From: a virus
Length of the DNA: 46,237 bases
Reading direction: 5' to 3' (one strand)
Virus record (IMG/VR): IMGVR_UViG_3300031372_000011
Location: 1 to 46,237 of that record
Shown: positions 2,842 to 45,346 of the stretch, piece by piece
How positions within the stretch are numbered: position 1 is the stretch's first letter
Layout of the letters: the number at the start of each line of letters is the position of its first letter
Program-made: the position numbers and the translations under genes
The notes under the pieces: model-generated
Databases searched by the model: none
What the model saw: only the letters and a program-made list of their open reading frames with translations
Told to the model about the DNA's origin: nothing

Positions 2842-4041
2842 ATGGCTGGCCGCCCGCGCCATCGGGAAAATAGGCACCTGCCCGATTGTCTTTATTATGA
2901 CAAGGACGCGGGCGTCTACCGATTTACATTAATAAACGGCGTAAGGAAATCACTCGTTGATGCGTCCACTCGTAAACCATTGGATCGCGCAACAGCAATT
3001 GCTATCGCCAGAGAATATAATAATAGGATGCGGCCAGAGGTGGCAGTATCAGTAGACTTTCTGATCCGTGAATCCGGTGGGGTACAGGGGGAGGCATTAC
3101 CGTTTGCTGAACACGTCGATCATATTATGGAAAGAGCTATAACTGATGAAAAACCATCAGAAAGCACCCGTGAAGATTGGAATAATGATGCTGTCCGCGT
3201 GAAAGCCTTCTTCAGTAATATTCCAGCCTGCGATATAGAGCTGGAGCACGTGAACGCCTATATAAAGGAATATCATGCAGAAGCATCAGCAAACGTGCAA
3301 AACCGTAAGGTCAGCTTCTTGAAGAAGTTATTCAGCTATGCGGTCGATGAATCGCTGATGCTCGATAACCCGGCCACTCGTAAGAAGATGCGCCGGATCG
3401 AAGAGAAAAGGCGCCAGCGGTTGTCCTTTGAAAACTTCATGGCTATCCGTGCCGCTGCGGCTCCATGGTTGCGAACGGCTATGGATCTGGCTCTGCAAAC
3501 GACACATGCCAGGCTAGAGGTATCACGTATCCGCTATACCATCCGAGAGCCAAAAAATGGTATCTGCGGTTGCCTATGGCTCGATCAGCCTGAAGATGGC
3601 ATTTATGGCACGCTGTACATCCACCGCCAGAAGGTGCAGAAGAAAGAGGCTTCACATGTGGCTATCCCGATCGGTGCCGAGCTAAAGCGGATTATTGACG
3701 ACAGCCGGGACAGCGTGGCCAGTCCTTACATAGTGCACAGGATCCCAGATCGAAGAGTTAAGCCCAGCAAAGAAGTGGCGCACCCGACACAGGTTGCCCC
3801 GGACTATCTCAGCCGGTCATTTTCTGCTGTACGGGACAAGCTCGGCCTATCCGATCACCTGGAAATGGACGAGCGGCCAACGTTCCATGAAATCCGCGCA
3901 CTGGCCGCGCACCTGTTCGATAACCAAGGTATCGACCCGCAGGCGCGCATGGCTCACAGCGATGCTAAATCTACCAAGATTTACACCCAGAACCATATCG
4001 ATTGGGTGGTGGTACCACACGGGGAAATCAAAACAGGGTGA
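2842..4041 (+). CDS. int: Tyrosine site-specific integrase (lambda Int-like)
   Basis: The 399-aa ORF has a C-terminal catalytic region (HEIRALAAHLF...AHSDAKSTKIYTQNH) that includes the terminal Tyr. It is adjacent to xis and to a tRNA-derived attP. Confidence 0.9.
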   Translation: MAGRPRHRENRHLPDCLYYDKDAGVYRFTLINGVRKSLVDASTRKPLDRATAIAIAREYNNRMRPEVAVSVDFLIRESGGVQGEALPFAEHVDHIMERAITDEKPSESTREDWNNDAVRVKAFFSNIPACDIELEHVNAYIKEYHAEASANVQNRKVSFLKKLFSYAVDESLMLDNPATRKKMRRIEEKRRQRLSFENFMAIRAAAAPWLRTAMDLALQTTHARLEVSRIRYTIREPKNGICGCLWLDQPEDGIYGTLYIHRQKVQKKEASHVAIPIGAELKRIIDDSRDSVASPYIVHRIPDRRVKPSKEVAHPTQVAPDYLSRSFSAVRDKLGLSDHLEMDERPTFHEIRALAAHLFDNQGIDPQARMAHSDAKSTKIYTQNHIDWVVVPHGEIKTG

Positions 4042-6609: not shown

Positions 6610-8775
6610 TTAAATTACTGCGATTCGTGAAATTGCGCATGGGTTAACCATCACAAAAGATGGGACGTTTCTGCTGACTGTCGTTGTCGTGTCGAAGATA
6701 TTAACCAGCGGATAGCTATTGGCCCCATTATCCGTAGCAGTGCAGCCGAACCTGAAATAATCACCGACCGTTGGTGCTACATCAGTCACAAAGCGGAATA
6801 CAAAATCACTCTGCTGAGTAGCAGAAACAACACTGGCCGAAGCGTCTTGCAAATCACACCCAAGGTTAGGTGCAGTAATTCCGTTGACTGCAATTATTTG
6901 CAATGGTTTTCCGAACGGAGAGCTAAACGTTATATCGAAAGTAGTGGCATTCACTTTCGTGATGCTCTCAGGCTGGACGGGTTTAAACTTGACACCAGAT
7001 GGATTATTTACTCGGTCGTAAATTGTCCAATCCTCAGCGGCCCCCTGGTACTCACCTAGAATTCGATATCCCTGGGCGGTAAGGTGCAAAAGGTCTAGCG
7101 GAAACATTCTGTTTAAGTACCACTTCGGGATACTCATGAAAGCCTCTGTGCGCTCTTTAGTGAACTCCCACTGATCAATTGCAACAACATAGCCACGCTG
7201 AGTAATGCCACTGATTACTGTCGTGTTGGTCAATGAACCTACCTGATCAACATCAAGCCATGGCTTTTCTGTCTGCCCAGAACGAGCCATCATGTCAGCC
7301 TGTGTATCGTCAGACCATTGAGTTAGATAACCTTTATAAGTGCCAAATTGCAGGTTTGCCGTATTTGCGTCAGCCTCACCATGGGTAAAACCGATAAGCT
7401 TGCAACGTGGAAGTTTCCCTATTGATTCTGCTCGCTTGCAGAACGAATCGAAAGCCGTCGTTCCGTCTATGTACGGCTGAGTCCCCTTCTTCAACTGGCT
7501 ATATGTAAAGCCACCACGAGCGTCTAGGCGAGTTACAATAATTGGCATTTGCGCATTGCGGTCTTGGTGGTTTAACAGTATCGCCTCACCTCCTGGAACC
7601 TGGCAATTATTCCGTAGGTTCACAATGCGAGCATCGGCTAAAGCACCTAGTGTTTCATCGGTTACCGGGCCATCTATACCAGCGCCACGGTCACGCCCCG
7701 AACCAGAGAACATAAGCAAATACCCCTGAAGAGCAAGAAGTGCTGCTCTAGCGCCACCGTTCGCCCCTACGCGAAGCGATTGCCCGCGCCCGGCGAAGAA
7801 ATGCATCTCCAGTGATGCGCTATTGACCTCTCGGATCTCTTCACCAGCAGCCACCGGCCAATTAGGAATTAATGCTGACTTCAACACACCATTTTCGCTA
7901 TAAACAAACGATATGCCGTTATCAGTTACTTTCTCAGCACTCGATACGGGGTAATAAGACCACAGCGGGGTCGTGTCGGACTCGCTCGCAAACAGCGCTA
8001 TCTTGCCCGTACCATCGGGCTTGATTAATCGCTCAGCCCCACCGCCCCCAGCATTTGCAATTGCTGTCTGTACCGATTCTGTCATTCCTGCTAGCCATAA
8101 GTGACCATCATCATCAATCGCAGCGACGGCTGTTTTCATGTCTTTCGTAAGCCATACGTATTGATAGCCTAAAATCATGGATGAGAATGTTTCACTCACT
8201 AGATTTCTTAAATAGTCCTGAACTGCACCATCAATACCGCAAACTTCAAGCCCACCGTTATCGTTAATTGCTATCACACCAGTATTACCTGTCAAGTCAG
8301 TTACAACAAACTGATATCCACTAATTTTATTCGCCTGCGCTTGCGGGATGACAAGGCTGATGTACTTTGTGACATCTTCCAGCAAAAATACCCTGTCATT
8401 TACATCAACAACAAATGCTGTGCTTGGGTAAGATTTTCCAGTAGGAGTGGCAACACCAGTTATGTTTTTGTATTGATCAGCGATTGATTTTTCTTCATCA
8501 GACCAAATAAAAAACAATGCACCATTAGGAATTTCACCAGAAGTTATTGCGGTGTTTGCCTCATCTAGCGTGTAAACCTTTCCCAGGGGAGCTAAGTTTT
8601 TTACAACATTGTCGTAATCAGCCCTGTACCCAGCCATGGTAAAACCTGAAACGCCAAACCGATTATCCCAAAACTCTCCTGGCCCATTAATCGCATAATC
8701 AAAGTTCTGAGCGTTATCATATAAATCCCTTGGGTCAGTAGATCCAAGAGGATTGTTGGTATGGTAAGTGGTCAT
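6610..8775 (-). CDS. Tailspike / tail fibre protein with a SASA/SGNH-like carbohydrate esterase domain
   Basis: The N-terminus carries the conserved tail-fibre segment NPLGSTDPRDLYDNAQNFDYA. The central part has FAGRGQSLRVG (GQSN-like) and GFTHGEADAN (QGESD-like) motifs. The ATG at 8775 is preceded by GGAGA, while the track start at 8790 abuts a terminator hairpin. Confidence 0.7.
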   Translation of the reverse strand: MTTYHTNNPLGSTDPRDLYDNAQNFDYAINGPGEFWDNRFGVSGFTMAGYRADYDNVVKNLAPLGKVYTLDEANTAITSGEIPNGALFFIWSDEEKSIADQYKNITGVATPTGKSYPSTAFVVDVNDRVFLLEDVTKYISLVIPQAQANKISGYQFVVTDLTGNTGVIAINDNGGLEVCGIDGAVQDYLRNLVSETFSSMILGYQYVWLTKDMKTAVAAIDDDGHLWLAGMTESVQTAIANAGGGGAERLIKPDGTGKIALFASESDTTPLWSYYPVSSAEKVTDNGISFVYSENGVLKSALIPNWPVAAGEEIREVNSASLEMHFFAGRGQSLRVGANGGARAALLALQGYLLMFSGSGRDRGAGIDGPVTDETLGALADARIVNLRNNCQVPGGEAILLNHQDRNAQMPIIVTRLDARGGFTYSQLKKGTQPYIDGTTAFDSFCKRAESIGKLPRCKLIGFTHGEADANTANLQFGTYKGYLTQWSDDTQADMMARSGQTEKPWLDVDQVGSLTNTTVISGITQRGYVVAIDQWEFTKERTEAFMSIPKWYLNRMFPLDLLHLTAQGYRILGEYQGAAEDWTIYDRVNNPSGVKFKPVQPESITKVNATTFDITFSSPFGKPLQIIAVNGITAPNLGCDLQDASASVVSATQQSDFVFRFVTDVAPTVGDYFRFGCTATDNGANSYPLVNIFDTTTTVSRNVPSFVMVNPCAISRIAVI

Positions 8776-29448: not shown

Positions 29449-29624
29449 GATCACGCCCCTTCTACATTTGTTGGATTTAGCATTGCGTTCTCTATAGAAA
29501 AGGAGCCTGTCGCATAGAAAAGCCGCCCGAGAGAGGTCGCCACCTTAACGGCTGTTCTCAGGCTCACTTTCTATAGGCTCTCGGTTGATATGCGCTTGCG
29601 ATAGCGCGGTGATGTTAAAGAAGC

Positions 29625-40353: not shown

Positions 40354-41073
40354 ATGACGAATGTCATGAGTCCGGCTAATCTTCTACTTATGGTAGAAAA
40401 CGAATCAAAGTATCAAGACTTCGCAGATCGTCTAAACTCCCTAATGAGAGAAGAGGGGGTGGACGTGAATGCACTTAAAGATATCAGCGGGGTCTCATAT
40501 GAGATGGCCCGTCGCTATACGTTAGGCACAGCAAAGCCCAGGGATGAAAAGCTGGAGAAAATTGCGAAGCACTTCGGGGTAACAATGCCGTTCCTTGACT
40601 ATGGTGTCGGGGAGGCACTGCCTGTGGGTCATGATGCGGAAAAGCTCGAGCAGCTGGAAGTGTATGCCAGCGCAGGCCGCAGTGGTTATATAAACCGTGA
40701 TTTCCCTGAAGTAATCAGATCTATAGAAATTCCGAAAGAGAGGATCTACGAACTTTTTGGCAGAAAAAACCTCGACGGGATCAGGATTATGAACGTTGAT
40801 GGCGACAGCATGATGCCAACGTTAAACCCAAGGGATCTACTGTTTATCGATTCCAAGGTCGACCATTTCAATGGCGATGGCGTGTACGTTTTCTGCTTTG
40901 AAGATGCTACCTTCGTCAAGCGCCTTCAGCGTGTAAAAGGCCGACGCCTGGCGGTTATTTCCGATAACGATCGCTACCCACCGTTTACCATTGAAGAAAA
41001 TGAGATGTTCGAACTCTACATTTTTGGAAAACTCATCAAACAATTACCCATGAAATTTGTAGATTTCGCCTGA
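40354..41073 (+). CDS. cI: CI-type repressor (HTH plus S24 LexA-like autopeptidase domain)
   Basis: The protein has an N-terminal HTH and a C-terminal DGDSMMPTL (catalytic Ser) and FVKRLQR (catalytic Lys). Confidence 0.9.
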   Translation: MTNVMSPANLLLMVENESKYQDFADRLNSLMREEGVDVNALKDISGVSYEMARRYTLGTAKPRDEKLEKIAKHFGVTMPFLDYGVGEALPVGHDAEKLEQLEVYASAGRSGYINRDFPEVIRSIEIPKERIYELFGRKNLDGIRIMNVDGDSMMPTLNPRDLLFIDSKVDHFNGDGVYVFCFEDATFVKRLQRVKGRRLAVISDNDRYPPFTIEENEMFELYIFGKLIKQLPMKFVDFA

Positions 41074-41595: not shown

Positions 41596-41862
41596 ATGAT
41601 GAAAGCTTACCAGTGCACAACAGACCTTTTTGCAGACGTCGATCTGGGCATCAAAAATGCTGTCCTGATGTGCGTTGAAGGCCCAGCAGCAGCAACCAAA
41701 AAGCTGTGTGGCCAACTGGCTAAATCCTTCGTCATCGCCGGGTATGAAGAAGATGGCGCAAAGGCTGGTGATCTGGTGGTGTTCTTCGTCGTTAAAAAAT
41801 CCGGGGTGTCTGCGTTCGTGGACGCGGCAACCCAGAAAGGAGGCGCTCGTGTTGAAGCATAA
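41596..41862 (+). CDS. Hypothetical protein (88 aa)
   Basis: An ORF in the early operon. Confidence 0.5.
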   Translation: MMKAYQCTTDLFADVDLGIKNAVLMCVEGPAAATKKLCGQLAKSFVIAGYEEDGAKAGDLVVFFVVKKSGVSAFVDAATQKGGARVEA

Positions 41863-42034
41863 AATGTGGACCTTCGAAATGAAGGGTGATCAGTTCTTCT
41901 TCACCGAGTTTGTTGACGGTCGCGAAGTAGCGACGCATGGCCCGGTGGATAAGGCAGCGGCCTCAGTATTGGCAGTCAGCATCATCCAAGGCTTTCAACC
42001 CCCTGCTCTGTTTGTAGAGGTTGAAAGTGAGTAA
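41849..42034 (+). CDS. Hypothetical protein (~61 aa)
   Basis: The GTG at 41849 is preceded by AGGAGG. An alternative ATG lies at 41864. The longer track ORF from 41675 overlaps the previous gene. Confidence 0.4.
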   Translation: MLKHKMWTFEMKGDQFFFTEFVDGREVATHGPVDKAAASVLAVSIIQGFQPPALFVEVESE

Positions 42035-42722
42035 GGGCGGCTGCCGGGCGACGGTGATCAGCATGCTGATCGGGCTTGTGTTCTTCGCCACCCTAGCTGT
42101 GGCTGTAGTGATCGATACCGCCGGGTAACCGGCCCATAACGGCCTGCTCATTCGCCCTTTTAATTAATTTTGGAAGCGGTGGGGGTAGCACTCATGAGTG
42201 AGCAGACCGTTGTGGTGAAGCGTTGGAGAGACGTTTGTATGCGGATTCAAGCGGGAGGCCGTTCGCAGTCGGAAGACTCGACCCCCGTTCGGCAATAGGA
42301 CGTAGGTACCAGCCACTACGGTGAGCCCAGCACCACAAATCTCCTTGCCGGGGAGTTCAACCGGCATGACAGCTCGGAAGAGACGAGCACACAACGATAA
42401 GAGCTCTGCACCGGATATGTGGCAAGCACCTGTGTAACTCCCGCTGGCGGCGTGGTAGTGAGGTCGCAGAGCCGACGTTACGGGCAACGCGGCGCAAGGT
42501 GGTCAAAGGCAGTGCTCTTTTCGTTGTGGCATCCGGTGATAGGCGGGCTACCTCTCCGCCCGGGGGTTCAACTCCTCCCACCACACACCTTATCCCCTAC
42601 CTTGGGATAAACCGGGCCCAGGCCGCCGGATAAACGTAACCGGCACCCAACTGAAACGGTTTTTAGGGGACGCGGTCTGTTTTACAGCGTGACGAAAGAA
42701 CCGGAGATAAAGCCGTTTCAGT

Positions 42723-42891
42723 TGTGGTGAATGCACAGGCTGATGTGCAAAGAGTAAGGGTGACGGGGTTCCTAGGCCCGGTGAACCGAGCGATTTGGTA
42801 AGGCCGATCTGGTGAAAGCGCCCTCAAAGTGGGTAGAGGCAGGTTCGATTCCTGCTACCAATGCCGGAGATCAGCGCCGGTCACCACAACC
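42723..42891 (+). ncRNA. tRNA-like element 2 (expanded, ~169 nt)
   Basis: The 5' part reads TGTGGTG-AA-[TGCAC AGGCTGAT GTGCA]. An inner minihelix follows: ATTTGGTA...[CCTC AAAGTGGGTA GAGG]-[GCAGG TTCGATT CCTGC]-TACCAAT. Then comes the hairpin GCCGG-N9-CCGGT, and the element closes with CACCACA-A-CC. Confidence 0.4.
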
Positions 42892-43064
42892 TAAATCTGA
42901 ATGTTGCTTCCTCGCTTTGCTGATAGCAGCGCATTCGCCGGATAGAGTAACCGGCACCCAACAGGAAAGAGCATTGGGACCGTGAGCGTGAAACGCTAAG
43001 GGCCACCCACACCAGGGAAAAGAGCAACGATAACCCGTTGCAGTGGTCCCAGTGCTCTCTCCGT

Positions 43065-43193
43065 TGCGGTGTAGTTCAGCGGTAGAACGGGCTATGGAGT
43101 GCTGGCCAGCGTGGGGATCAAAGAGGTTTGCAAACCTCCTGGTACCCGGTCCAAAAAGTGCAGTCGTCGGTTCGAATCCGACCACCTCAACCA
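43065..43193 (+). ncRNA. tRNA-like element 3 (129 nt) with canonical D arm, T arm and encoded CCA but a 77-nt central region
   Basis: The acceptor is TGCGGTG/CACCTCA (6 of 7 pairs). The 5' side reads TA-GTTC-AGCGGTA-GAAC. The 3' side reads GTCGG-TTCGAAT-CCGAC-CACCTCA-A-CCA. The central imperfect hairpin at 43113-43147 has the loop TTTGCAAA. Confidence 0.5.
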
Positions 43194-43470
43194 ACTAAAT
43201 GCTGTGTGTAGCTTTGGCGGCCTCGCCTAACTTCTACTTAATAGAGGTGACGACAATGTTCATGGGCCTGGCCGCCCTTTTTACACATCAGGTGGCGTAC
43301 TGTCCGGACCCTTAAACCTGGATAGTCTAAGAAAAACCGGAACGGTGCGCCACCTGGTGTGTGGAGAAATATGGCAGGCGATGAGTGGTATCCCTGCCAA
43401 TTAATATCAACCTATTTTCTGCGAAATATTGCCGAGTCTTGGCAGGGAGTTGTTTTGCCGAAAATCAGTG

Positions 43471-44400
43471 ATGGAGAATATCGTGAGCCATTTAACTTTC
43501 AAAAATATCCTTATTTATCGCCTGTCTCGGGATGTTGATTTATCGCCTGAAACTATTGAAACCCACCTGGCACCGTTCGCCCTTACACCATGTAGCAGCC
43601 AGGATATGGCGAAAGCTGGCTGGATTTCCCCCATGGGAAAGCGCGGAACGTCGCTATTTCATGCCGTTAACGGCCAGGTAATTCTTTGCGCTCGCAAAGA
43701 AGAAAAAATTCTTCCTGCTTCGGTAATTAAAGAAGAAGTGCAGAAGCAGATCGAAAAAATCGAAGGCGAACAGCATCGCAAACTGAAAAAGACGGAGCGG
43801 GACCAACTGAAAGATGAGGCTTTGCAGAGCCTGCTACCTCGCGCGTTTAGCCGCTTTACTAGTGTATTCATGTGGATCGATACCGTTAACGGCCTGATTG
43901 TGGTTGATTCGCCAAGCTCTAAACGTGCCGAAGATGTCTTGGCCTTGCTACGTAAGAGCCTTGGCTCGTTGCCGGTCACCCCTTTAACGATGGAGAGCCC
44001 TATAGAGCTGACTTTAACCGAGTGGGTTAGATCTGGAAAGGCGCCAGCCGGTTTCTTGCTGCAGGATGAGGCTCAACTCAAAGCCATTCTGGAAGAAGGC
44101 GGGACCATTAGCTGCAAAAAACAAGACCTGTGCGGCGATGAGGTGGCAACAAACATTGAGGCCGGAAAGCTTGTTACCACGCTGGCCCTTGAGTGGAAGG
44201 AACGGATCAGCTTTTCCATTACTGACACTGGAAGCCTCAAGAAGCTGAAGTTTTGCGATCAGTTGCTCGAGCAGAATGATGATATTGACCGTGAAGATTT
44301 TGCCATGCGCTTCGATGCTGATGTTGTTTTGATGACCGGGGAGCTATCTGCACTTATAGCCAACCTGACCGAAGTTCTTGGCGGGGAGGTGACTTCCTGA
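43471..44400 (+). CDS. rdgC: Recombination-associated protein RdgC homolog
   Basis: The protein is collinear with E. coli RdgC as I remember it, through segments such as FKNxxxYRLSR, [84 protein letters not shown] and [13 protein letters not shown]. The start is either ATG 43471 or GTG 43483 (GGAGA lies upstream of the GTG). Confidence 0.88.
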
Positions 44401-44591: not shown

Positions 44592-45346
44592 AAGAGCGCC
44601 CAGTTTTATTCAACGGCGATATGGTTCGCGCCATTCTCGACGGTCGCAAGACGCATACGCGGCGGGTTATGAAAGTGCAGCCCGAATCCCAGGAATTAGG
44701 GTTGAGCCGCATAACTGAGTCAAAAAATAGCAGCGACACAGGAAAATACTTCTGGTCACTATCAGATGCTCTAGGTAGTAGGTCGCGCTCAAAAATTTTC
44801 CCATGCCCGTTCGGCCAGGTAGGTGATCGGCTGTGGGTGCGAGAGACGTTCGCGACTCTCGGTAACGAGGACGGCTGCCCTATCGATTGGAGTGAGAATC
44901 TGGTCAAAGGCGGCGGCCCAGAAGCGGCAAGAATTTACCGCGCTAGTTGCGATCAGAAAGCCGGAAATTATGGGCTGTGGTCAATCCCTGATATCGCAGA
45001 TTGGAAACCCCATACCTGGAACGTGCAATACGAAGGATCATGGGTTCCCTCTATCCACATGCCGCGCTGGGCTTCGCGCATCACTCTGGAGATAACAAAC
45101 GTAGGCGTTCAACGCCTAAATTCGATTAGCCAGAATGATGCCGAACGGGAGGGGCTTCATAAACTGCCAGCCTCCGGCAGGTACTGCATTACACCTGGAG
45201 CGCAATATTTTGGCGGCGCGAGCCATGATGCGCGTGAGGTATTTTCTTGGCTATGGCAATCCATTTACGGTGAAGAAAGTTGGCAGGCTAATCCCTGGGT
45301 GTGGGTCATCGAATTTAAACGCGTGGAGGGTGCTCATGGAAAATAG
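44588..45346 (+). CDS. ASCH/PUA-like domain phage protein
   Basis: The N-terminus PVLFNGDMVRAILDGRKTHTRR, then CPFGQVGDRLWVRE, SIHMPRWASRITLEI and NPWVWVIEFKRV match a widespread phage family usually annotated as ASCH. This is from memory. Confidence 0.5.
   Translation: MKERPVLFNGDMVRAILDGRKTHTRRVMKVQPESQELGLSRITESKNSSDTGKYFWSLSDALGSRSRSKIFPCPFGQVGDRLWVRETFATLGNEDGCPIDWSENLVKGGGPEAARIYRASCDQKAGNYGLWSIPDIADWKPHTWNVQYEGSWVPSIHMPRWASRITLEITNVGVQRLNSISQNDAEREGLHKLPASGRYCITPGAQYFGGASHDAREVFSWLWQSIYGEESWQANPWVWVIEFKRVEGAHGK

Follow-up and report, generated by a model that had tools for sequence, protein, structure and literature searches.

Phage T4 encodes two RNAs, rnaC (species 1, 139 nt) and rnaD (species 2, 119 nt), that lie in its tRNA cluster, on the same strand as the tRNAs, and are longer than a tRNA; their role is still unknown (PMC3014915). 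Bacterial Y RNAs such as YrlA, some of which are phage-encoded, have a tRNA-like domain without a decoding anticodon, and the YrlA of Mycobacterium smegmatis, which has an acceptor-like stem of 7 bp, is a substrate of RNase P and acquires CCA (PMC4201824). In tmRNA, an acceptor stem and a T arm frame a large insertion. GOLLD, ROOL, and C4 RNAs are prophage-borne and often adjoin tRNA genes, and the C4 antisense RNA is matured by RNase P. The synthetic "tRNA scaffold" that Ponchon and Dardel described in 2007 is said to be a protective frame with its payload in the anticodon position. And in plant mitochondria (t-elements and tRNA punctuation), a tRNA-shaped fold within a longer transcript is a processing signal (PMC1920247). 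Here we describe an array of four RNA modules at positions 42129-43470 of the viral record IMGVR_UViG_3300031372_000011 (46,237 nt, all of which was analyzed; we call it the window), and the phage RNA family to which its third module belongs. A helix, P1 (UGUGGUG/CACCACA or a variant), closes each module, in the place that the acceptor stem has in a tRNA.

As a whole, the window has no close relative among GenBank phages. With blastn set for distant matches, short stretches of 85-91% identity were found in unannotated gaps of four GenBank phages: Pseudomonas phage Marin, "cyanophage" Cy-LDV1, Salmonella phage Sasha, and Klebsiella phage Kp4866-6. Nine loci with the complete module 3 element came from a motif scan of IMG/VR. 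In all, blastn and motif scans found 13 full members. Of 5426 complete E. coli genomes, none matched the whole region and two had a partial match to module 3. A collection with one representative genome per species (185,579 genomes) gave a single match, in Intestinirhabdus alba, where the element lies between a lambda-like pL/operator region (boxA and a boxB-like nutL) and an N-like gene.

An alignment of ten sequences of the module 3 family gives a fold with P1 and hairpin A, then an irregular hairpin that we call domain B, a mini-tRNA, and hairpin D. The mini-tRNA consists of an acceptor stem and two arms, D and T, with a 3-4-bp stub between them. Hairpin A has a loop that is complementary to the loop of hairpin D (GCUGAU/AUCAGC). 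Compensatory changes were found at 29 of the 48 pairs of the fold. With the A-D loop pairing included, 92.4% of the cells of the alignment form a standard pair, as compared to 77.3% after shuffling and 35-42% if the strands are slid by 1-3 columns. Similarly, 31 of 53 pairs are altered on both sides, versus 14.4 for shuffled alignments and 7-16 after sliding by 1-3 columns, and none of 500 shuffles reached the observed value. In P1, 7 of the 8 pairs are altered on both sides. In the loop-loop helix, 84% of cells pair and two pairs are altered on both sides. In other members the two loops shift in step, to ACUGAU/AUCAGU in locus L161 and to GGUGAU/AUCACC in L121 and L010, and the pairing in L008, L009, and L014 is GUCGA/UCGGC. 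Because the compensatory changes are found in P1, the scaffold hairpins, the loop-loop pairing, and the mini-tRNA, this alignment shows that the predicted RNA structure of the module 3 family is under selection.

The cargo of module 3, domain B plus the mini-tRNA, marks a sub-family: none of 100 loci with hairpin A carry it. Our covariance model for the family, R1, also finds copies that have P1, hairpin A, and hairpin D but a different cargo, and a motif scan for hairpin A found at least 120 viral contigs. We will call P1 and these two hairpins the scaffold. The counts in this paragraph, and those for bases next to P1 below, are among the matches listed, which include 108 unique modules of 85-380 nt. 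We predicted the position of the 3' strand of P1 from the loop of hairpin D, which is an anchor that is independent of P1. All seven P1 pairs form at the predicted position in 72 of 103 modules, versus 0-1 at control offsets, and that set contains 31 distinct P1 sequences. Hairpin D abuts P1 (gap 0) in 86 of the 86 P1-paired modules, and the base 5' of P1 is U in 57 of the 86. (Hairpin A begins two nucleotides after P1 in all modules, as the search motif itself requires.) In module 3, U42881 separates the CCGG strand of hairpin D from P1; the gap is 0 if this base is counted as part of a G-U pair. Members of 85-95 nt fold as four-arm cloverleaves with almost no cargo, and across the family the cargo is highly variable on a constant scaffold.

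Given the geometry of P1, hairpin A, and hairpin D, together with the pairing of the A and D loops, the scaffold has the plan of a tRNA: P1 is the acceptor stem, hairpin A is the D arm, hairpin D is the T arm, and the paired loops form the elbow. The cargo takes the place of the anticodon arm. A preliminary description of this DNA, made by eye, had pointed out that TGTGGTG is followed by two nucleotides and a D-arm-like hairpin, which turns out to be the defining plan of the family. It had also placed a tRNA-like element at the end of each module, which was the wrong placement: the closing helix itself has the role of the acceptor stem. The members of the scaffold family are not tRNAs, as they have no anticodon loop, their loops are non-canonical, and NCCA is rare.

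A 107-nt minimal scaffold matches 154 records of GenBank phages, nearly all of them with the element unannotated or mis-called as a hypothetical protein. Among the carriers, which are of unrelated types, are Klebsiella, Escherichia, Salmonella, Erwinia, Stx2, and Pseudomonas phages. SopranoGao, vB_Kpn_ZC2, swi2, and HK620, which are phages of Klebsiella or E. coli with genomes of 38-61 kb, share a 105-nt minimal scaffold at 96-99% identity. Near-identical scaffolds in unrelated phages point to recent horizontal transfer of the RNA gene alone. Overall, the scaffold family consists of tRNA-like non-coding phage RNAs with a distinctive architecture and a very wide distribution, and no family in Rfam 15 matches it.

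About a quarter of the loci have true tRNA genes on the same strand, 50-600 nt away. Two other contexts recur: the RNA lies between nutL and N (cI-pL-nutL-RNA-N), or it lies, with a hairpin, between Q and the holin (Q-hairpin-RNA-holin). Besides the copy in I. alba, there are copies upstream of a bona fide N gene (Pfam N36, E = 2e-13) and copies that sit between Q and the S holin. In the leaders, the outer or closing stem is homologous to the N-leader stems of lambda and phi80, which enclose other interiors. We take the N-leader stem of lambda to be its RNase III site. In the late leader of lambda (L180; J02459, 44787-44939), we found an upstream hairpin H2, then CCGU, then a covarying P1 (TGTGCTG/CAGCACA). 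This segment is just 3' of tR' (the 6S RNA terminator), and its start overlaps the end of "orf-64" (44621-44815). Hairpin A has been lost from this degenerate copy of the scaffold. We also clustered the neighboring proteins to look for a conserved partner, and none was found: the downstream open reading frames (ORFs) fall into 54 clusters and the upstream ORFs into 65.

A few loci deserve comment. In pathogenic E. coli prophages, the small RNAs PasA and PasC are directly upstream of the holin, and the 5' end of PasA is made by cleavage of a longer transcript (bioRxiv 10.64898/2026.05.13.724894). This position is just downstream of the late-leader scaffold. L009 holds two tandem scaffolds (7232-7408 and 7552-7731), 144 nt apart, one with the domain B plus mini-tRNA cargo and one with a different cargo, so arrays are not unique to the window. 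BK059895 ("Cyanophage Cy-LDV1", L002) has a full member in the early operon that also contains bet, exo, and ssb. Judged by its genes, this record is like a temperate phage of proteobacteria, and its assignment to a cyanobacterial host may be questionable. In L007 (minus strand), a tandem repeat of the 3' arm and tail (CACCAATCACCAATCACCAATCACCAATCACCAAT) comes directly after the scaffold at 3439-3570. Finally, the apex of domain B in module 3 (42769-42778) holds a palindrome, CCUAGG, that could in principle mediate loop-loop dimerization; the apex varies in L184, L194, and L204.

We compared the array and the scaffold family to known RNAs. At gathering thresholds, Rfam 15 has no match in the whole window. 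Only under permissive filters does the tRNA model (RF00005, gathering score 29) fit two sub-elements, both without an anticodon arm: 43065-43190 in module 4 (38.8 bits, E = 2.8e-6, with a 72-nt insertion at the place of the anticodon arm) and the mini-tRNA of module 3 (42794-42863, 29.6 bits), which has a 3-4-bp stem with variable loops at that place. The sole call by ARAGORN is an odd "tRNA-???" at 43095-43193 with a 4-base "anticodon", with no proper tRNA or tmRNA. Thus module 4 and the mini-tRNA have the acceptor stem and the D and T arms of a cloverleaf but not the 7-nt anticodon loop of a true tRNA. If we allow E values of up to 10 in the array region, then beyond the tRNA model there are only weak matches (among them rydB at 17.7 bits and RNase P at 11 bits). 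GOLLD, ROOL, and C4 had no match at that threshold, nor did they at E up to 1 in 14 scaffold-bearing loci, and no family covers the scaffold in those 14 loci. We rejected tmRNA because ARAGORN finds neither a tmRNA nor a tag ORF and the tmRNA-type models of Rfam reach just 16-17 bits, as compared to gathering scores of 47. DicF scores 19.5 bits, with a gathering score of 48, at 43203-43277; this piece weakly resembles the 3' hairpin of DicF and is not a member. The M3 RNA of phi80, which is processed by RNase P, is annotated as an oop homologue, so we did not count it as a member (phi80 has an N-leader stem with a different interior). Searches of the literature, whose coverage is incomplete, found no description of the family or of its characteristic 15-mers.

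A bacterial Y RNA was also rejected. The Y RNA-type motif GNCGAANG has one match, GACGAAAG at 42691 in the loop of a spacer hairpin, and about 0.6 would be expected by chance. There is no match to Ro/TROVE in 8 of the 9 ORFs of at least 350 amino acids (all but a 1022-amino-acid ORF from the tail region), and the neighbors of the array are the repressor, small ORFs, and RdgC, with no Ro60/Rsr gene among them. More broadly, none of the defining features of YrlA (a GNCGAAN0-1G Rsr-binding motif near the 5' end, canonical D and T loop nucleotides, and Ro60 within 4 kb) were found in the array.

The T4 RNAs are the nearest classical analogues. Of the two, rnaC ends with a canonical T arm (CCGGG-UUCGAAU-CCCGG) beside its 3' terminal strand, as module 4 does. 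But rnaC and rnaD have no similarity to the array by sequence or by covariance model, and they lack the A-D loop-loop design and the conserved P1 sequence. In T4, R1 matches only the real tRNAs and the T arm of rnaC (11.7 bits). The T loop of module 2, UUCAACU, is presumably of the tmRNA type, whereas the G3:U70 pair, the pseudoknot rings, and the tag ORF of tmRNA are not in the array. The lambda leaders share homologous flanking or closing helices (of the GCUUUGGGGUGUGUG...CACACACCACCAAAGC type) and their location (the interval from nutL to N, or the one from tR' to S), but their interiors are without hairpin A, the loop-loop pair, or a tRNA-like cargo. The likeness to tRNA punctuation, to t-elements, and to the synthetic scaffold is an analogy of mechanism only, not homology.

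The window is a complete genome of a temperate phage, with an integrase, a portal, a capsid-protease, a large terminase, a C5 methylase, a DUF968 protein, and a replication protein. A repressor gene (helix-turn-helix and S24) lies at 40354-41070, and after it come a terminator and a promoter-like site. Because the order is repressor, small plus-strand ORFs, array, rdgC, we place the array in the predicted repressor-side (early-left) operon, the counterpart of the pL operon of lambda. From this place inside a plus-strand operon, we predict that the array is likely transcribed.

There is no credible gene in 42129-43470. The longest stop-free stretch on the plus strand of the array region is 87 codons, and the ORFs that are called mechanically have 63-107 codons. 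Four ORFs inside the region have no match in Pfam, and all four are truncated or frameshifted (with many 1-2-nt indels) in L016, whose RdgC is 97% identical to that of the window. The G+C content is 0.561 in the array region and 0.515 in the whole window. Counting both strands, TGTGGTG is unremarkable in the window as a whole (9 copies, 6.5 expected). Yet five of the nine fall within 678 nt, where 0.095 would be expected (Poisson P of about 6e-8). TGTGGTG occurs at 42211 and 42723 and TGCGGTG at 43065, each followed after 2 nt by a hairpin; CACCACA occurs at 42331, 42579, and 42882, and CACCTCA at 43183. When we read through 41800-43800, we found every T arm, 7-mer, hairpin, and helix that the preliminary description had listed, and its arguments that the 7-mers recur beyond chance and that the region lacks a credible ORF both hold. 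The checks it proposed, with Rfam, with ARAGORN, for conservation of small ORFs, and for covariation among homologues (strong for the family of module 3), came out in its favor. All of the tests we ran agree with its central claim, and the view of the region as a non-coding, tRNA-mimicking array of structured RNAs that fits no canonical tRNA, tmRNA, or Rfam family is supported. Table 1 lists the features.

Table 1. Features of the array and of the adjoining rdgC gene, in coordinates of the window. Paired strands are joined by "with"; MFE, minimum free energy.
Feature	Coordinates	Strand	Basis or remark
Array leader	42129..42210	+	Common to L017 and L018
boxA-like CGCCCTTTTAATTAA in leader	42153-42167	+	Sequence reading; tentative
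Small palindromic hairpin GCACTCATGAGTGAGC, then CCGT directly 5' of first P1	42188-42203	+	Sequence reading
Module 1	42211..42337	+	P1, hairpin at D-arm position, and ~90 nt of cargo
Module 1 P1, UGUGGUG/CACCACA	42211-17 with 42331-37	+	MFE fold closes P1, z = -1.9
Module 1 hairpin at D-arm position, AAGCGU-UGGAGAG-ACGUUU, after AA	42218-36	+	Sequence reading
Module 2	42338..42585	+	Sequence reading and fold
Module 2 hairpin GCCGG-GGAGTTCAA-CCGGC	42347-65	+	Sequence reading
Module 2 second hairpin, then ACACAAC (42389-95)	42372-88	+	Sequence reading
Module 2 long helix H2, AGAGC...GGCAGTGCTCT, variable interior, then UUUCGU	42400-42518	+	Sequence reading and fold
Module 2 P1, UGUGG/CCACA	42525-29 with 42581-85	+	Sequence reading and fold
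Hairpin GGCGG-GCUACCUCU-CCGCC inside module 2 P1	42542-60	+	Sequence reading
T-arm-like hairpin GGGGG-UUCAACU-CCUCC, abutting 3' strand of module 2 P1	42562-78	+	Sequence reading
Spacer 5' of module 3	42586..42722	+	Sequence reading
Spacer H1, GCCGG-ATAAACGTAA-CCGGC, then ACCCAAC (42645-51)	42625-44	+	Sequence reading
Spacer H2, CTGAAACGG with CCGTTTCAG	42651-59 with 42713-21	+	Sequence reading
Module 3	42723..42888	+	Full member of scaffold family; covariance model R1, 180 bits
Module 3 P1	42723-29 with 42882-88	+	Family alignment
Module 3 hairpin A, UGCAC-AGGCUGAU-GUGCA	42732-49	+	Family alignment
Module 3 domain B, core GUGACGGGGUUCCUAGGCCC at 42760-79	42752-92	+	Family alignment
Module 3 mini-tRNA without anticodon loop, T arm GCAGG-TTCGATT-CCTGC at 42839-55	42794-42863	+	Rfam tRNA model, 29.6 bits
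Module 3 hairpin D, GCCGG-AGAUCAGCG-CCGGU	42863-81	+	Family alignment
Spacer 5' of module 4	42889..43064	+	Sequence reading
Spacer H1, GCCGG-ATAGAGTAA-CCGGC, then ACCCAAC (42956-62) and AGGAA	42937-55	+	Sequence reading
Spacer long helix H2, AGAGCATTGGGACC with GGTCCCAGTGCTCT, then CTCCGT	42968-81 with 43045-58	+	Sequence reading
Module 4, tRNA-like with canonical arms	43065..43193	+	Rfam tRNA model, 38.8 bits
Module 4 acceptor/P1, UGCGGUG/CACCUCA	43065-71 with 43183-89	+	tRNA model
Module 4 D arm, GUUC-AGCGGUA-GAAC, two nt after 5' strand of P1	43074-88	+	tRNA model
Module 4 72-nt insert replacing anticodon arm	43090-43161	+	tRNA model
Module 4 T arm, GTCGG-TTCGAAT-CCGAC, abutting 3' strand of P1	43166-82	+	tRNA model
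Module 4 encoded ACCA	43190-93	+	Sequence reading
Array 3' end, terminator-ended piece resembling a small RNA	43194..43282	+	Kept in L016, L017, and L018 whatever modules precede
3'-end long hairpin GGCGGCC/GGCCGCC, then CUUUUU	43216-22 with 43270-76	+	Sequence reading
Further hairpins and rdgC ribosome-binding region	43283..43470	+	Conserved in L016-L018
Hairpin AGGTGGCG with CGCCACCT	43290-97 with 43349-56	+	Sequence reading
Hairpin GGCAGG/CCTGCC	~43375-98	+	Sequence reading
rdgC	43471-44397	+	RdgC, Pfam PF04381, E = 1e-116

Modules 1, 2, and 4 are putative relatives of the scaffold family by plan only: they have P1 and the arm positions, with other loop sequences. R1 gives module 4 a score of 10.5 bits and does not match modules 1 or 2. 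Module 1 is identical in L016 (2740-2866), so covariation is not available for it, and module 4 has a near-identical copy there. The base of H2 and the P1 of module 2 are common to L016, where the interior of H2 differs and holds two T-arm-like hairpins; parts of module 2 also match L151, L149, L075, and L070 at 74-83% identity. Upstream, the boxA-like site in the leader resembles what we take to be the boxA of lambda nutL (CGCTCTTAAAAATTAA), with 1-2 mismatches. This likeness is tentative: the site is weak and is not retained in L016.

The spacers between modules have a common layout, with a hairpin (GCCGG-loop-CCGGC; H1) and then ACCCAAC, and a long hairpin (H2) that ends 4-6 nt (CCGU) 5' of the next P1. 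H1 with ACnCAAC, which also occurs at 42937-62 and in Klebsiella phage Kp4866-6 and Salmonella phage Sasha, looks like a remnant of hairpin D and the 3' strand of P1. More than 100 phages of Salmonella, Klebsiella, and E. coli carry the string H1-ACnCAAC-AGGnAAGAGCATTG where their DNA has no annotation. In a permissive and weak test across the family, a hairpin ends 2-7 nt 5' of P1 in 56 of 114 modules, versus 34 of 114 for the control.

The leader of the array, its terminator-like 3' hairpin, and rdgC all recur in three syntenic relatives, L016, L017, and L018. Between the leader and the 3' hairpin, L016 has 5-6 modules, L017 has about 3 with other cargos, and L018 has one, a mini-module in which P1 encloses a single 10-bp hairpin. 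The break-points among these loci are in shared arms (CCGUUGUGG and CACCACAACC).

Elsewhere in the window, a segment of 118 nt (29495-29612) has matches of 86-88% identity in many lambdoid phages, mostly in DNA without annotation; HK620, HK106, Salmonella S107, and phi80 (where the match extends into the start of rha) are examples. It is the sole part of the window to match known phages in the whole-window DNA comparison, and it may be another conserved non-coding element.

We propose, with a probability of roughly 0.6, that the array is a set of co-transcribed tRNA-shaped cassettes plus a terminator-ended small RNA, and that it acts as punctuation and scaffold to be cut by host enzymes. Each cassette would be closed by a P1 of 7-9 bp at the position of the acceptor stem, and the pairing of the A and D loops would mimic the elbow of a tRNA. 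Host enzymes for the maturation of tRNA and rRNA would cut the long operon transcript at the modules. For RNase P, the site would be the 5' edge of P1; we propose this because an acceptor-like stem is stacked on a 5-bp hairpin, because U is frequent at -1, and because there is a precedent in YrlA. On the model of the N leader of lambda, RNase III would cut in the long helices that flank or close the modules, and 3' trimming would complete the processing. Cleavage at module 4 could also create the 5' end of the 43194-43282 piece. The cutting would punctuate the operon RNA and free compact, nuclease-resistant, stable RNAs. The conserved scaffold would supply processing and stability, and the variable cargo would be the effector if there is a function in trans. 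Since the minimal members carry almost no cargo, we predict that the core function probably lies in the conserved scaffold itself.

Several observations weigh against our proposal. First, a CCA end is rare (NCCA follows P1 in 6 of 86 modules and NCC in 21 of 86), P1 is mostly 8-9 bp instead of 7, and the loops at the D and T positions are non-canonical, so recognition by RNase P is no more than plausible. Second, modules 1, 2, and 4 have only near-identical homologues, so each of these folds rests on one sequence. Third, the folding energies in the array are not exceptional (z-scores of -1.9, -1.5, +0.1, and -1.2; the +0.1 is for module 4), so the case for dense structure must rest on comparative evidence. 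Of the preliminary description's "densely structured" region, then, covariation upholds the structure of module 3 only, and folding energy gives no support. Fourth, the MFE fold of modules 1 and 2 pairs 42211-17 with 42579-85, enclosing both, and neighboring P1 strands could find other partners because they are mutually complementary in either order. Fifth, punctuation alone leaves four large cassettes unexplained, because a single mini-module suffices in L018. Sixth, the "invariance" of the domain B core is partly an artefact, as the members had been fetched by that motif; in an independent scan that was anchored elsewhere, the core varies, and one variant has a base pair deleted on both sides.

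As a side note to the fourth point, the loop GGAGAG at the D position of module 1 (42224-42230) is complementary to CUCUCC in the loop and stem of a module 2 hairpin (42552-42557). Given this complementarity and the preference of the MFE fold for the same closing pairs, modules 1 and 2 may be a single unit of 375 nt, with 42211-17/42579-85 as its closing helix.

A bolder version of our proposal gives the cargo a role. The scaffold would be a new, horizontally mobile class of phage RNA, a natural "tRNA scaffold" with a loop-loop elbow that is excised by host enzymes and that carries, at the anticodon position, interchangeable effectors acting in trans on factors of the host or of rival phages. 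The array in the window would then be a multi-effector locus, and a host factor would be the conserved target bound by the domain B plus mini-tRNA cargo, which several lambdoid phages have upstream of N. We consider this version possible but doubtful.

Alternatively, the modules might be purely cis-acting leader elements, placed between the antitermination site (nut or qut, with the terminator) and the first gene, that tune the translation or stability of the downstream mRNA in the way of the RNase III stem in the lambda N leader. The excised RNA would then do nothing by itself, and the array might be a by-product of recombination between repeated arms. Members do occupy the nutL-N and Q/tR'-holin intervals, and a ribosome-binding site follows P1 by 20-40 nt; their closing stem is homologous to those of the lambda and phi80 N leaders, which have other interiors; and close relatives differ in their number of modules, with the break-points located in shared arms. 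However, many copies are found within clusters of tRNA genes, or 3' of structural genes in virulent phages, and there a leader role would not apply. Also, a processing stem would need far less conservation than is seen in the loops and in their pairing with each other, and in the window roughly 1 kb separates the array from the likely promoter, with a terminator-like hairpin of its own at the array's far side. A purely cis-acting role seems unlikely.

We also considered that these RNAs are trans-acting decoys or sponges that titrate a host or defense factor which recognizes the body of tRNA (candidates are anticodon nucleases, effectors of the PARIS or retron type, Ro/Rsr-like proteins, and enzymes of modification or repair), with the diversity of cargos reflecting an arms race. 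Phage tRNAs are known to counter tRNA-cleaving defenses (PMC11555353, PMC10802454), which provides a precedent. The array's place in the early operon, and the "moron" positions of other copies, including the late leader where Stx phages carry tRNAs, would suit such a role, as would a highly variable cargo on a constant scaffold; and the 96-99% identical copies in unrelated phages of different hosts suggest a transferable benefit. But no module has a 7-nt anticodon loop and the elbow loops of the scaffold are non-canonical, which mildly weakens the idea: because these loops are not present, factors that read the anticodon loop or canonical T and D loops would not be mimicked. Nor is a conserved protein partner found among the neighbors. 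For a Ro-like target in particular, 8 of the 9 ORFs of at least 350 amino acids have no Ro/TROVE match and the GNCGAANG motif is at chance level. The minimal members are nearly without cargo, so that the function is probably in the scaffold itself, and we think that decoys are quite improbable.

Could the array be a decayed tRNA cluster whose arms serve only as DNA homology for mosaic exchange, with no RNA function? Surviving T arms, a D arm, and an encoded ACCA would be expected of one, and so would the H1 plus ACCCAAC pieces that resemble remnants of module 3' ends, the loss of hairpin A from the lambda copy, and the gain and loss of cassettes among relatives. But decay does not account for compensatory changes in P1, both scaffold hairpins, the loop-loop pairing, and the mini-tRNA, or for scaffold loops that are unlike tRNA in sequence and yet are conserved across 154 GenBank phages, and we consider it very unlikely. 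As for small or unusual protein-coding genes on either strand, mechanical ORFs of 63-107 codons do exist, but with no Pfam match, with their reading frames broken in L016, and with pair-preserving substitutions in the same DNA, this explanation is effectively refuted.

If our proposal that host enzymes process these RNAs is true, then phages routinely punctuate long operon transcripts with tRNA-shaped folds and make stable RNAs in doing so. This would apply to the leaders of both antiterminated operons of the lambdoid phages, which have been studied for decades. Because the family is abundant (at least 120 viral contigs and 154 GenBank phages, including HK620, Stx2 phages, and Klebsiella phages of the therapeutic type) and is almost always unannotated or mis-called, recognizing it would improve phage annotation at once. 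The family also gives a sequence-defined entry to the old question of the T4-type "stable RNAs" in phage tRNA clusters. The scaffold may be a natural, evolution-tested frame for expressing structured RNAs in enterobacteria, and its variable cargos are candidates for RNA-based functions in host takeover or anti-defense.

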